From assembly GCA_964016885.1 (NCBI GenBank), contig OZ024740.1, positions 96,162,001 to 96,226,000 of the forward strand: 64,000 nt of DNA, written 5' to 3'. Shown in pieces: positions 5,629 to 59,300 of this stretch. The notes below the pieces were generated by a model. It had not been told where the DNA came from, made no database searches, and saw only the letters and a program-made list of their open reading frames with translations. The translations under genes were made by a program, and so were the position numbers. Origin of the DNA: Eledone cirrhosa. Taxonomy: Eukaryota. Numbering within the stretch: the stretch's first letter is position 1; each line of letters starts with the position of its first letter.

Positions 5629-5707
5629 GACACCCGGACAGAGCTAAATCTGTTACGCAATAATTATTATGTGAAAGCCAGAATTGTTGTACTCTTCTGC
5701 GGGTATC
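5629..5707 (-). ncRNA. Degenerate type I hammerhead ribozyme in a diverged relative of the 550-bp repeat family
   Basis: Minus strand: gatacccg CAGAAGA [helix II] GTAA caga tttagc tctg TC cgggtgtc. Helix I (8 bp), helix III and the GUC site are intact, with two core substitutions. Flank 5505-5620 resembles the 550-bp unit. Confidence 0.55.
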
Positions 5708-5899
5708 CAGGAAATGTGTACCTTCCACTTCAGTGGGTCTTAGAATACTGAACGATGTGCTAATATAAAAACACATTAAACTAGTATTTTTTCAACTTAG
5801 CTAACGTTTGCAAGTATTCTTATATCTGTGTTCTTCCTTCTCATATATCCAATTATATATATATATATATATATATAAAATAAAAAAAAGGTTCGCTCT

Positions 5900-6812
5900 A
5901 CATGGCTGAATACAATAAATGTAATCTGAGTTTTTCGAATATTAATAATTGTTTCTACTTTAGGCACAAGGCCAGCAATTACCCAGTGCATTACTGGTAC
6001 TTTATTTTTCGACCCCGTAAGGATGAAAGGCAAAGTCAACCTCGGCGGGATTTGAACTCAGATCGTAAAGGGACATAACTATGCTGGAAAGCATGGCGTC
6101 CGACTCTCTACCGATACTGCCAATCCACCACCCTTTTCGAATATTAATATTAAGATTAATAATACCATTCGATTCGATTGCAATTATGCAAACGAGCCTC
6201 GTTTTTAAAGCCATGTCCGTAGAATGAACCCTACATGTTGTTCTTGTGTCGGCATGTAAACAGGACTGCAGACACTAATGTTTCTGGATATCACCTTTCA
6301 TTCACTGTTCACCTGCCAAATGTCAGAGTTAGTGAAAATATATGCTATTTTTTTTTGAAATATACAGTGACTGATCGACCTGATTTACATATTATCAGAC
6401 TAGCTGATCAGTCAGATCTGTATTTTAGTAGATCCACTGATCAGCCAGACTTTCATATCAGCAGCCTGGCCAGTTAATTTTCTGTATACGAGTGATAAAT
6501 TGCCGGCTTTGCCACATAAAAAAAAGTCGATTTACATGGCTGAATACAATAAATGTAATCTGAGTTTTTCGAATATTAATAATAACATTCAATCCGTTTG
6601 CAATCATGCCAACAAGCCTCATTTTTAAAGCCATGTCAGTAGAATGAACCCATCATCCTTGCTCTTGTGGTGACATTTAAACAGAACTACAGACACTAAT
6701 GGTAAGAGCAAGAATGAAGGGTTCATTCTACTGATATGGCTTTAGAAATAAAGGTTGTTTGCATAATTGCAAACGAATCGAATGTTATTTTTAATATTCG
6801 AAAAACTCAGAT
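5900..6812. repeat. Tandem duplication plus inverted arm (fold-back repeat), interrupted by the SINE
   Basis: catggctgaatacaataaatgtaatctgag occurs at 5901 and ~6535. 6559-6667 is inverted at 6703-6812. Confidence 0.75.
5948..6133 (-). mobile_element. tRNA-derived SINE with Nin/Deu-like central domain, with 16-bp TSD
   Basis: A box tggcagtatcgg, B box gagttcaaatccc, core gcctttcatccttacggggtcga..aaagtaccag. TSD ttttcgaatattaata at 5932-5947 and 6134-6149. Confidence 0.9.
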
Positions 6813-55135: not shown

Positions 55136-57184
55136 GATGAATATAAGTCAATAGAGTGCTCAACCAAGGGAGCGAAATAGTAATAATAATAAATCTGAAG
55201 ACTAAAATTCAAAGATGGCTCGATAAGGATAAATATATATCAAATATATAAGAACCGTAGAGCAAATATTTATCAAAATAGCAGATTAAAGTTTAAGCAA
55301 AGAATCGCTGCTTTCACCCTTAACGGGATCTTCTGAAACTAACAAAGTCAATATGTAAACGCAGAAGTGTATATTTCAAAAAACGTTGCAACCGGAGGAA
55401 CACAGGAAGACGATACTTTGTTTCGTGGAAACGATCCCTGGCAAAGAACGGGAAAATACGAATATAATACGTAATTAATAGGAGCGGTGAAAAACAATTA
55501 CGTGCAAAGACAGAACCACGTTTATGGTATAAAAGAAATCGTAGACTAATGTTCTCTTAGGTGGTTTATAGAGACGTTCTCTGGCAATGAACGAAAAAAA
55601 ACGAAGATAATACGTCGTATGTGGACTTTGGAGAACAATTGCACGCAAAGACTAAACCACGTAAATGGTATAGCTGAAGTCGTAGACTAATATTCTAACT
55701 AGGAAACCGAATTAATCTCTGCTTCAGAGTTAAAAATAAAGTAAATAAAATACAATACAGAGGTAATAGAAATTAAATAAATACATACACGCATGCAAAT
55801 ACGTACATACACAAGCATACGCAAAAATACTTGCCATATGTATACAAAACCACGCACATATAAATATGTGTGTGTGTGCGTGTATACACATAAATAAATA
55901 ATTAAATAAACGTATATAAATAAATAAATACGTATATCACAAGCGCACACACATACCTACATGTAAATACACAAATGTTCGGAGACGTAAGTCAACCAAA
56001 ACACGAAGTACACATATACACACACCCAACATACGTCCGAACCTGCATACTCACACAGACGCAAAACTCCCGTATACACATAACCAAACTATGTGTACCA
56101 GAATATATGAAAAAAGTATACGCCATAACATATACAATCAAATATACCTACGAGAAAGTACGTACCTTCACAAAACATACATGTAATATATACTTACATA
56201 TGCAAATAAGTAATGGTATAAACAAAACATATACTTAGCTACCACATCAAGACGTAACATATCCACGTATAGATCGTACTATCCGTTAGGGTATAACGTG
56301 GGGCTGTAATACAGGAAGGTTTTGTGCAATTTATTTTTAAGATTTTTTGTTAAGGAAGTGGTCTGTGGCGTAGAGTATTTCCAGGGCCTCAGCGGCGCAG
56401 AGGTAAACAGGTCTTTTCTTCCGTTATACGATCTAGCCCTAGCTAGGATCTCCCAGTGTAACTTATATTGGGTGTGGTTGTCTTTTAGTCTTCAGATATA
56501 AGCTGAAAGTGACGTCATATTCCTTCTTAGAGATTTACGAATCTATTGGCGGTTAACATTATGTAGGCCCTACGACGCGTGGGTTTTTCAACCTTACATT
56601 TGTAGACAATGTTACTAGAGAGGCATTTCCCGGATAGGGGGCAATCAACCCGATTCCTACAATTACAGTTACTACTAACTACAGGGTTGCACGTGATCCT
56701 ACGGTTAGGTAGTTTTGCTAAATTTGAAGCTGTGATGTTATGTGCATGGTTAGGAGTCGTAGAGTAAGAAATTTTAATAGTATTTCTATTAAAAATGTTA
56801 CTATATTTATGTGTAGGGGGAAAATGCTTCGTAATAAGCGAAAGAAAGACCTTAGCTAATGGTGTGGCCACCTCCATATTATATGGTGGGTTATACCACC
56901 AGATGCGACGGGATCTATTTCTTCTAGGTCTATTTTCGTACTCAGTATATGTTTTTCACCGCTCCTATTAATGACGTATTATATTCGTTTTTTCCCGTTC
57001 TTTGCCAGGGAACGGTTCCACGAACCAAAGAATCGTCTTCCAGTGTTCCTCCGGTTGCAACGTTTTTTTAAATATTCACTTCTGCTTTTACAGATTGACT
57101 TTGTTAGCTTCAGAAGATCCCGTTAAGGGTGAAAGCAGCGATTGTTTGCTTAAACTTTAATCTGTTATTTTAATATATATATAT

Positions 57185-59300
57185 ATAAATGTAAGTATGT
57201 ATGTATACGTACATACATATATGTATACAGACGTACAGTAGCATGTATATGTATATATACATACAGGCACACATATATATATATGCACGTATCAGTTTAC
57301 CGAACATTTATTATAATGCTCGGTTTGTTCGTTTGTAAACAAACAAACAGCCTGAATTACGCCGTACAGTGTTTAGGCAAACACGTCACCCTTTTGTTCA
57401 ACACTGACACAGGAACGATGTACTGGTTTCAAGCTTATTGGCTATCGTCAGCACCGTATACCTTTCTGCCAGATGGTTGAACGTCCGGAAGTATATACTT
57501 TCCTTATGTAAATTAACGGCTGAGCAGCCTAATTTGCATATCGAGTGAGTTCAGTCGGCCAGGCGCACGGAAAACGATAAATGGAATAGAATGAAACGAA
57601 ATTTCATTTCTCACTCTATACGGCACTTACTTAAATGTAAGTATTAGCTAATAAGCTTGAAACTAGTACATCGTTCCTGCGTCAGTGTTGAACAAAATGG
57701 TTACGTGGTTGCCTAAACACTTTACGGCGTAATTCAGGCTGTTTGTCTGACTACAAACGAACAAACCGAGCATTATAATAAATGTTCGGTAAACTGATAC
57801 GTGCATATATATATATATGTGTGCATGTATGTATATATATATATACATGCTACTGTACGTCTGTATACATATATGTATGTACGTATACATACATACTTAC
57901 ATTTAAGTAAGTGCCGTACTAAGAGTGAGAAATGAAATTTCGTTTCATTCTATTCCATTTATCGTTTTCGGTGCGCCTGGCCGACTGAACTCACTCGATA
58001 TGCAAATTAGGCTGCTCAGCCGTTAATTTTCATTAGGAAAGTGTATACTTTCGTACGTTCAACCATCTGGCAGAAAGGTATACGGTGCTGACGATAGCTA
58101 ATAAGCTTGAAACTAGAACATCGTTCCTGTGTCAGTGTTGAACAAAAAGGTGACGTGGTTGCCTAAACACTTTACGGCGTAATCCAGGCTGTTTGTTTGT
58201 TTACAAACGAACAAACCGAGCATTATAATAAATGTTCGGTAAACTGATACGTGCATGTATATATGTGTGCCTGTATCTATATATATATATATATATACAT
58301 GCTACTGTACGTCTGTATACATACATGTATGTACGTATACATACATACTTACATTTAAGTAAGTGCCGTACTAAGAGTGAGAAATGAAATTTCGTTTCAT
58401 TCTATTCCATTTATCGTTTTCGGTGCCCCGGGCCGACTGAACTCACTCGATATGCAAATTAGGCTGCCCAGCCGTTAATTTTCACAAGGAAAGTATATAC
58501 TTTCGGACGTCAACCATCTGGCAGTAAGGTATACGGTGCTGACGATAGCTAATAAGCTTGAAACTAGTACATCGTTCCTGTGTCAGTGTTGAACAAAAAA
58601 GGTGACGTGGTTGCCTAAACACTGTACGGCGTAATTCAGGCTGTTTGTTTGTTTACAAACGAACAAACCCAGCATTATAATAAATGTTCGGTAAACTAAT
58701 ACGTTATTATATATATGTGTGCCTGTATGTATATATATACATGCTACTGTACGTCTGTATACATATATGTATGTACGTATACATACATACTTACATTTAT
58801 GTAAGTGCCGTACTAAGATTGAGAAATGAAATTTCGTTTCATTCTATTCCATTTATCGTTTTCGGTGCTTCTGGCTGACTGAACTCACTCGATATGCAAA
58901 TTAGGCTGCTCAACCGTTAATTTTCATAAGGAAAGTCTTATACTTTCGGACGTTCAACCATCTGGCAGAAAGGTATACGGTGCTGACGATAGCTAATAAG
59001 CTTGAAACTAGTACATCGTTCCTGTGTCAGTGTTGAACAAAATGGTAACGTGGTTGCCTACACACTGTACGGCGTAATTCAGGCTGTTTGTTTGTTTACA
59101 AACGAACAAACCGAGCATTATAATAAACGTTCGGTAAACTGATACGTGCATATATATATATATGTGTGCCTGTATGTATATATATACATGCTACTGTACG
59201 TCTGTATACATATATGTATGTACGTATACATACATACTTACATTTAAGTAAGTGCCGTACTAAGAGTGAGAAATGAAATTTCGTTTCATTCTATTCCATT
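57185..59300 (+). repeat. ~445-bp hammerhead-bearing tandem array (1 inverted plus about 3.7 forward units)
   Basis: Inversion at ~57645. CTGACGA at 58088, 58539 and 58983; (TA)n flanks. Confidence 0.95.
58533..58575 (+). ncRNA. Minimal type I hammerhead (also 58082, 58977 plus; 57415-57457 minus)
   Basis: acggtg CTGACGA tagc taataa gctt GAAA CTAG TA catcgt; palindromic CTAG helix III. Confidence 0.93.

Follow-up and report, generated by a model that had tools for sequence, protein, structure and literature searches.

Non-coding hammerhead repeats of Eledone cirrhosa carry a Penelope-type insertion footprint and may record repeated copying of single RNA units

Introduction

The window analysed here, an AT-rich stretch of 64,000 nucleotides of the Eledone cirrhosa genome (contig OZ024740.1, positions 96,162,001 to 96,226,000), holds broken coding copies of Penelope-like retroelements together with non-coding tandem repeats whose units each carry a predicted type I hammerhead ribozyme. 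An initial annotation described a dense assemblage of about ten unrelated hammerhead-bearing families and read the non-coding ones as circular-RNA parasites of co-resident Naiad elements. Here we characterize the motifs, the coding elements and the anatomy of the insertions, and find that three non-coding families (310, 445 and 550, named by unit length in bp) share fixed outer ends and homogeneous arms that point to insertion by a Penelope-like enzyme, probably of the Hydra clade, that likely re-reads one RNA unit.

Results

Hammerhead motifs in the window

A strict type I hammerhead descriptor (helix I of at least 4 or at least 5 bp, helix II of at most 130 nt, helix III palindromic or at least 3 bp) returned 21 matches in the window, compared to a mean of 0.13 (maximum 2) or 0.03 (maximum 1) in 60 block-wise dinucleotide shuffles and none in the reversed window sequence. 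The combination of CUGANGA, GAAA and UH boxes with three closing helices (I–III), as in a type I hammerhead fold, is therefore far more frequent than in AT-rich shuffled sequence, and the cores and helices lie at the positions first proposed for them. The match at 43564 (−) was judged to be chance, leaving 20 motifs spread over 8 insertions.

Descriptor-intact motifs occur in the 310, 445 and 550 families, in a repeat with a long helix II (the 234 repeat) and at 18767 and 19348, and the motif at 44093 passes a looser scan. The window copies of the 276, 6152, 51702 and 32095 families are mutated, whereas homologues at fetched loci are intact; helix III of the 276 family is the palindrome ATGATCAT in 13 of 16 other copies among the matches listed. 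Motifs at 52063 and 49624, recognised by eye, are plausible. Counting those in the window or in relatives, there are 11–13 hammerhead families, in agreement with the "about ten" of the initial annotation; "unrelated" goes too far, as the repeat at 5376–5860 is a distant relative of the 550 family. When 229 distinct hammerheads, drawn from 1.94 Mb, were clustered, several families became chained together in a single cluster, and for this reason we claim no family total.

Pairing of the hammerhead helices is retained across haplotypes of the 310 family, and a U.U pair at the base of helix II is found in the 310, 445, 276 and 52063 motifs. All 45 predicted pairs of the long helix II are kept, with weak covariation because changes are mostly one-sided and just 3 are both-sided. 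Rfam returned no hammerhead in the window at gathering score, and at E ≤ 1 there was no hammerhead among the 150 matches listed of 154; Rfam membership is not needed for the hammerhead fold. The microRNA matches of Rfam in the window were dismissed as AT-rich hairpins scoring below the gathering threshold.

Two-armed insertions of the 310, 445 and 550 families

Copies of these families and of the smaller 276 family lie in the window as follows (coordinates, strand where one applies, description).

22690–25680: 310-bp family insertion, inverted arm and tandem arm back to back inside (TA)n; inverted arm 22690–23787 (−), 3.5 units, outer end at unit position 139; other arm 23788–25680 (+), 6.1 units, outer end at 164/165
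24239–24281, +: example of a predicted type I hammerhead in a 310 unit, with its core at 24245; helix I has 6 bp, helix II is made up of U.U and 4 bp, and helix III is the palindrome ACGCGT; cleavage is predicted after 24275
17914–18649: 310-bp family insertion; short inverted arm 17914–18050 and 1.9-unit arm with tail
57173–59303: 445-bp family insertion; inverted arm 57173–57644, 3.7-unit arm 57645–59303, intact motifs at 58539 and 58983
13868–15808: older 445 family insertion; + arm interrupted at 15140–15604, joined at 15808 to a canonical Penelope-like fragment
34837–35116, −: truncated 445 family copy with tail
41000–41415: short inverted pair of the 445 family
49953–51377: 550-bp family insertion; inverted arm 49953–50253, arm of two units ending at 51377; in its hammerheads (50438 and 50993) the helix II region spans 39 nt and helix III is long and stable (z −4.9)
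41450–42879: insertion of a second subfamily of the 550 family, with cores at 41828 and 42378 (−)
30200–30463: truncated inverted pair of the 550 family
5376–5860: distant relative of the 550 tail region, without intact core here
35116–35765, −: 276-bp dimer of a low-copy family, both hammerheads mutated in helix III; no ORF (open reading frame) upstream in 4 fetches of 8 kb; some copies of the family continue further upstream

The 310, 445 and 550 families consist of non-coding tandem units with one predicted type I hammerhead each and at least two consecutive intact motifs. No same-strand endonuclease ORF was found within 1.5 kb upstream of any of 270 (310), 64 (445) or 39 (550) distinct fetched copies, in keeping with their earlier description as non-coding; one 310 copy has an ORF start downstream, past a TA run. 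Predicted circular folds of the three units have z-scores of −4.1, −4.4 and −6.7 (antisense −5.7, −3.1 and −4.3).

To describe insertion anatomy we used the first 100 of 995 exact tail–TA junctions of the 310 family, of which 98 loci were analysed (96 fetched, 2 in the window). An inverted arm is present in 92 of the 98, and its outer end falls at unit position 138–139 in 87 of these 92 (3 run off the fetched sequence and 2 are compound); 81 of the 87 ends abut TA repeats. The other arm ends at 164/165 by selection, and four loci picked by core, with both or one end visible, have identical outer ends. The two fixed outer ends are ~26 nt apart. Arms meet head to head, overlapping by 0–5 nt at the centre junction in 66 of 92 loci, and reach 27.3 and 21.5 units, the inverted arm being the longer in 37 of 92. 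Their lengths fit an exponential distribution (Kolmogorov–Smirnov (KS) test, p 0.26 and 0.53), and their 5′ ends are spread over the unit in a way indistinguishable from uniform (KS p 0.11 and 0.07). Two window copies had suggested that arms start at the cleavage site, an idea refuted in the 92 loci. Two fixed ends are likewise seen in the 445 family (unit positions 217 and 287), the 550 family (189 and 262–269) and autonomous Hydra copies in the window. The layout of inverted arm plus tandem arm inside (TA)n given in the initial annotation is confirmed.

Two fetched loci depart from the simple layout. The 310 insertion of L051 is compound: its centre holds a repeated short inverted pair, the junctions being identical. 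In L116 (1533 onward), sequence like that of the 310 tail region stands ahead of a 445-type core, possibly making up a hybrid unit.

Coding elements of the Hydra clade

Eight coding fragments of the window match Hydra-type proteins and three match canonical Penelope-like proteins, and wherever domain order is readable the reverse transcriptase (RT) is followed by a C-terminal GIY-YIG endonuclease. Most of the coding elements carry Hydra motifs, namely DKT, RWR (rather than RWK), a CNCRx4C linker, and CxxC and CxH around E and N; CCHH is absent from the Hydra-type proteins examined, and both a (TA)n target and a canonical hammerhead were seen. These features match the published diagnosis of the clade, including Hydra-1_Obim of Octopus bimaculoides (RT then GIY-YIG, DKT, RW(K/R), CxCX5C, CxxC and CxH without CCHH, (TA)n target, inverted 5′ copy, tail and canonical 3′-end hammerhead; Craig et al., PMC8557442), the supplement of which lists Hydra-1_Obim and Hydra hammerheads with U.U at the helix II base, as in the 310, 445, 276 and 52063 motifs. 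Assigned by motifs and domain order, the coding elements are predicted to be Hydra-clade and canonical Penelope-like elements. Pfam names few of 17 fragments and gives a weak GIY-YIG match (E 0.0011) on the ORF at 20293–21006.

The same paper describes Naiads as having the reverse domain order, no canonical hammerheads and mere remnants in cephalopods (PMC8557442). In the window proteins we found no N-terminal endonuclease, CxC domain or DKA (Naiads were not searched genome-wide), RT precedes GIY-YIG, and hammerheads lie in Hydra 3′ ends, so the name "Naiad" does not fit these elements. Several of the repeats initially taken as solo or short are 3′ ends of autonomous Hydra elements; for others, such as that at 18767, no attached ORF was found. 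The coding copies are:

37818–39940, +: Hydra thumb and endonuclease fragment; ORF part 37818–38750, then 3′ untranslated region (UTR), long-helix-II hammerhead at 39758
19243–22138: Hydra fragment; endonuclease ORF 20293–21006 (+), inverted 3′ ends, hammerheads at 19348 (−) and 22033 (+)
51906–57173, −: broken Hydra element; ORF ~55135–53050 with DKT and RWR, hammerhead-like motif at 52063, upstream partial tandem 55177–56954, inverted arm 56950–57173
26557–29365, +: broken Hydra element with the endonuclease after the RT; an inverted pair lies ahead of it at 25817–26579 and has a CTGATGA for which no closing hammerhead half was found
30679–33724, −: two Hydra thumb/endonuclease fragments, 30679–31833 and 32341–33724; decayed hammerhead near 32095
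62158–63845, −: Hydra RT fragment (DKT)
7378–7697, +: Hydra endonuclease fragment
9053–13570, −: broken canonical Penelope-like element with GLKF, DKG and C-terminal GIY-YIG, between inverted ends in which no hammerhead was found
15808–17795, +: truncated canonical Penelope-like element with RT, thumb, linker and C-terminal endonuclease
1–1011: end and ORF start of a second canonical Penelope-like copy

At 15604–17795 the 445 + arm runs straight into the truncated canonical element just before the hammerhead core, a junction due either to a template switch or to a later deletion. A perfect (TTC)32 tract lies at 61968–62063, just past a truncated Hydra fragment.

The 234 repeat forms the 3′ terminus of an autonomous Hydra family whose ORF, at ~810 amino acids, is intact in loci L182 and L183 (1745–4183 in L183); copies are 96.7–99.6% alike. 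L045 is the same locus as L183, and other copies are 98.4–99.6% alike to L183. The repeat adjoins a Hydra ORF without a TA break in L146, L164, L173, L178 and L180, and the 19348, 52063 and 32095 motifs, too, are attached to Hydra ORFs in some copies. Two further copies of this 3′ end lie in the window:

35835–36881: truncated inverted pair and 130-nt tail; hammerhead with ~100-nt helix II
44374–44927: young subfamily; both arms begin 5 nt before the core, with tail

In L179, arms twice start at the same phase of the upstream 234-bp subrepeat.

Haplotypes and the template that was copied

Across 74 loci and 727 full units, the 310 family resolves into 24 haplotypes, each fixed in both arms and 15 of them seen once. 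Fixed changes between loci amount to 9.2 per kb, compared to 0.42 per kb among units within a locus (72 loci, leaving out two mixed ones). Terminal part-units carry the variants of their own locus in 30 of 30 informative cases, and a non-fixed variant occurs in more than one segment in just 7 of 98 loci. If present-day arrays had been the templates, ~32 single-unit variants mirrored in both arms would be expected; one was seen (L081), from which we infer that an inherited change passed through one unit and was then re-amplified. The older families show no in-register excess (13:9, 38:32 and 3:4).

Fixed variants are concentrated in the 43-nt ribozyme (11 of 27, 3.7 expected, p 0.0006). None falls at its 11 invariant positions (p 0.04), where 3 of 92 non-fixed variants lie, which hints modestly that copies must have a functional hammerhead in order to spread. 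Unit positions 1–3, beside the predicted cut, vary recurrently (i2C in 6 loci, i2T in 2, A2G, G1T and G1A). In two sequencing runs the 310 unit assembles as one closed 340-letter contig without differences, as a tandem would too; in one of these the depth ratio to a second repeat is like that of a DNA-like run. Runs X1, X2, X3 and X6, labelled as four different organisms, contain the 310 unit nearly unchanged.

The best explanation, to which we give a probability of roughly 0.55, is that the 310, 445 and 550 repeats were inserted by a Hydra RT-endonuclease re-reading one RNA unit, most likely a ribozyme-made circle. Its parts differ in strength. Judging from the insertions, the repeats are very probably non-autonomous elements mobilised by a Penelope-type enzyme with two-site priming; that the Hydra clade is the partner can be held with good confidence; a one-unit template that is re-read is likely; and whether this template is a covalent circle is about an even call. 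A Penelope-like protein is reported to start at two adjacent internal sites on both strands, without homology to the target, the gap being equal to the genomic tail (Frangieh et al., PMC11167929), and the two fixed ends of the three families are best read by analogy as such starts.

Briefly, the proposed route departs from observed motifs, non-coding units, two fixed outer ends and homogeneous arms. An array would be transcribed, palindromic helix III would pair neighbouring hammerheads, and monomers would be cut out and closed into circles by a host ligase. As the in vitro behaviour of the published protein suggests, the enzyme would then bind this RNA and nick both strands of a TA repeat, and two cDNAs would begin at internal sites 139 and 164/165 of the 310 unit, leaving the gap between them as the tail. 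Each cDNA would circle the unit until it fell off at random, whereupon the two 3′ ends would join via 0–5 nt of microhomology. The circle-reading step has been proposed by Cervera and de la Pena (PMC7229834). Repeated reading of a monomer circle would explain haplotype fixation, the one-unit bottleneck, the scarcity of mirrored variants and the conservation of the core. Most specifically, and at somewhat less than even odds, the 310 insertions may be an in vivo record of a dimeric Hydra-clade enzyme with two starts 26 nt apart on a ribozyme-made 310-nt circle, read for up to 27 rounds per arm.

Several observations weigh against this explanation. All 98 loci of the 310 sample lie on one contig (C1, that of the window) and were selected for having a tail. 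The 5′ ends fall within 10 nt of the cut site in 2 of 92 and 8 of 92 arms, where 6.2 are expected; the opposite strand of the 310 unit folds as well (z −5.7) as the strong sense circle (z −4.1); and in a comparison confined to the window the units have no homology to any pseudo-long terminal repeat (pLTR) or UTR, as opposed to the pLTR homology reported for 24 of 57 Xenopus families (10.64898/2026.07.22.740005). Templates of the autonomous Hydra family appear to have been uncut, because 19 of 50 arms begin 4–13 nt upstream of the core (in 44374–44927, L147, L148, L153, L157, L158, L162, L165, L169, L171, L173, L177 and L181), whereas 2 do so near the cut site. The ribozyme 3′ half served to select most of the loci in this sample, a bias against cut-site starts; in an unbiased list of 21 inverted pairs, 13 have a mean start between −24 and +1. 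Arms starting at the ribozyme 5′ edge possibly reflect transcription start there. In the published in vitro work cleavage was dispensable and uncut RNA the main substrate (Frangieh et al., PMC11167929), and 1 of 9 Xenopus retrozyme dimers was cleaved (Li et al., 10.64898/2026.07.22.740005). Furthermore, a mirrored variant occurs once in L081, L072 is a mixed locus and not in register, and L062, L063, L083 and L265 contain short post-insertion duplications. Finally, each arm of L258 (17.7 and 3.0 units) changes from one common haplotype to another, and counted from the outer ends the change comes at the same unit in both. This favours a start of both cDNAs within a single unit of the same molecule; it also suggests that the template was linear and multi-unit, that cDNA realigned on a short redundant RNA, that the two cDNAs switched template together or that ectopic exchange took place, and it weakens the idea that every insertion came from one circle, since a single circle does not give such a switch.

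An unlikely alternative keeps the same enzyme and starts and replaces the circle by an uncut linear RNA of 1.5–3 units: on reaching the template 5′ end, the cDNA would realign one unit downstream in the manner of telomerase and repeat the 5′-most unit of the same RNA. It explains L258 exactly (outer two units of one haplotype and inner units of another, in both arms), agrees with the uncut substrate in vitro (PMC11167929) and the uncut templates of the autonomous family, and also yields a one-unit bottleneck and exponential arm lengths. However, it predicts that new variants should be lacking from outer units and present in inner ones, a pattern shown by L258 alone of 74 loci; the 30 of 30 terminal part-units that match their locus count against it, and it leaves the conserved core of spreading haplotypes without a reason.

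Quite improbable is the copying of long uncut multimer transcripts, in register, by both active sites, with arrays regrowing and homogenising by unequal exchange. Such copying would suit the mirrored variants in L258 and L081 and the four loci with local duplications, and just 4 of 92 loci require a template of at least 15 units. The near-absence of mirrored single-unit variants speaks against it; exchange looks too slow to fix variants, given 24 fully fixed haplotypes and the rarity of intermediate-frequency variants (7 of 98 loci); and truncation alone would make arrays shorter with every generation.

Amplification at the DNA level (Helitron-like or extrachromosomal rolling circle, or palindrome formation), with hammerheads as inert leftovers of Penelope ends, is very improbable: DNA rolling circles are likewise known to give homogeneous tandem arrays and both unit strands fold well, but in its two fixed ends, its tail, its (TA)n target and its arms set back to back the layout matches the window's autonomous Penelope-like elements, and fixed variants avoid the catalytic core. 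A Naiad partner is equally hard to credit, for although Naiads are known from octopus and target (TA)n, neither their domain order nor DKA occurs in the window (with no genome-wide search for them), they are described as remnants without canonical hammerheads in cephalopods (PMC8557442), and young intact Hydra ORFs are present. The earlier idea of parasites of Naiad elements thus holds for the non-coding nature and Penelope insertion footprint of the 310, 445 and 550 families, with the partner probably being Hydra-type.

Abundance in the genome

Exact matches to five patterns, with reversed patterns as controls, were counted in the 3.0-Gb assembly and came to 34,125 in all (controls 0): 13,916 for the 310 core, 10,130 for the 445 core, 9,861 for the long-helix-II pattern, 200 for the 550 core and 18 for the 276 core. 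The 310, 445 and 550 families are dispersed and multi-copy, without long terminal repeats (LTRs). The 18 matches of the 276 core, mostly single or inverted, do not suit a high-copy tandem retrozyme.

Fifty evenly placed 10-kb pieces of the four largest contigs (C1–C4) contained 52 motifs (reversed control 1) in ~25 insertions, 26 of the motifs lying in two arrays. The sampled density of 104 motifs per Mb (bootstrap 40–194) extrapolates, on the basis of these four contigs, to 1–6 x 10^5 motifs in the genome. Window density is ~2.5–3 times the sampled mean (chance 0.04–0.08 by resampling); the window is hammerhead-rich, yet typical in kind. Published counts, obtained with other descriptors, are 126,247 in axolotl, >6,000 in coral and ~5,000 in mussel (PMC7229834).

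Other repeats in the window

The remaining hammerhead repeats are solo or decayed:

18676–19010, −: solo element; intact hammerhead at 18767, 10-bp helix II, z −5.0; no attached ORF found in 9 copies
44081–44143, +: solo hammerhead, 12-bp helix I; intact relatives elsewhere
5880–6814: decayed hammerhead-bearing family, split by a SINE-like (short interspersed nuclear element) insert at 5945–6129; intact in L034, L194 and L195
51702–51817: 116-bp inverted pair, decayed hammerhead; abundant, 36 distinct copies among fetched loci
49330–49917, +: repeat whose hammerhead-like motif (49624) has a clear helix II and, as far as this copy goes, poor helices I and III

A further tandem hammerhead family, absent from the window, was met in L207 (nine 556-bp units) and L032 (524 bp), with a 49–51-nt helix II region and helix III ACTAATTAGT. 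The 400-bp near-perfect palindrome at 48903–49306, in which no hammerhead was found, is related to the ends of the canonical element at 9053–13570, and copies of it flank a Penelope-like ORF in L031. Decayed inverted pairs lie at 1256–1571 and 40236–40939. The high-copy SINE-like repeat (5945–6129, 12198–12322, 40554–40738 and 45892–46077; 18 matches in 200 kb) may resemble the octopus OK/OR SINE. Long intact-looking ORFs of other non-LTR retrotransposons (1216 and 613 amino acids) occur in L211 from 1994 onward (+) and in L064 (−).

Discussion

On sequence criteria the 310, 445 and 550 families can be placed among the metazoan non-LTR retrozymes. Like those described, they consist of low-GC tandem units, non-coding and a few hundred bases long, with a single type I hammerhead, a short palindromic helix III and, as in axolotl HHR_Amex2, a U.U helix II base, and they co-occur with Penelope-like elements, the proposed helpers (PMC7229834; 10.64898/2026.07.22.740005). 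The 445 and 550 units exceed the 170–400 nt of one account (PMC7229834) and lie within the 51–972 bp of another (10.64898/2026.07.22.740005). The 550 unit differs in its long helix III, and the two-armed insertion with a tail inside (TA)n and the haplotype fixation seen here do not feature in the descriptions consulted. Retrozyme circles have been demonstrated in coral, mussel and axolotl (PMC7229834; 10.64898/2026.07.22.740005); those of the Eledone families are putative. Part of the set initially called retrozyme-like is made up of truncated autonomous elements.

Eledone has many divergent Hydra-clade families rather than one. One of them is ~7 kb long with a 4-kb 3′ UTR and a helix II of 100–115 nt, where listed elements are ~3 kb or less and their whole hammerhead motifs 80–100 nt; tails measure 26–130 nt here and 30–40 there (PMC8557442). 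The insertions also resemble those of the Poseidon element PAc of Anolis in their two adjacent internal starts, AT-rich target, extension of both strands and tail equal to the start gap; PAc differs in belonging to another clade, being autonomous, having been tested with linear templates only and needing no hammerhead cleavage in vitro (PMC11167929). Chlamys MRC1 offers a parallel as a set of non-coding Penelope dependants with pLTRs and multicopy head-to-tail insertions, although the Chlamys elements have 3′ sequence in common with their helpers and hammerheads are mostly missing from their clade (PMC8557442).

The retrozyme class, the occurrence of the Hydra clade in octopus and the mechanism behind the tail have been described before, and a 2026 preprint argues that retrozymes are non-autonomous Penelope derivatives (10.64898/2026.07.22.740005). 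As to the early suggestion that this diversity may be undescribed, the class is in print; neither a cephalopod retrozyme nor the two-armed layout was found in the literature searched, with Dfam, Repbase and most subscription papers outside that search. In passages of an Octopus vulgaris repeat annotation the word "ribozyme" occurs 0 times, and 235 Rfam hammerheads are given for giant squid (PMC13282606, PMC6962438). At ~100 motifs per Mb under the strict descriptor, the hammerheads described here escape Rfam, and annotation that relies on it would miss them.

The return of retrozyme RNA to the genome, the enzyme responsible and the role of the hammerhead for Penelope-like elements are questions that the literature calls open. 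The value of the 310 family, the youngest, lies in its being a clean natural record of Penelope-type insertion: it comprises >1,000 near-identical insertions, the ends, arm lengths and haplotypes of which offer an experiment-like readout, and an intact young Hydra ORF in the same genome makes the choice between circular and linear templates directly testable. If the reading offered here is true, the family would be evidence, at the level of the genome, that reverse transcription proceeds by rolling circle as has been proposed for retrozymes, and this in a genome whose hammerheads number on the order of 10^5.

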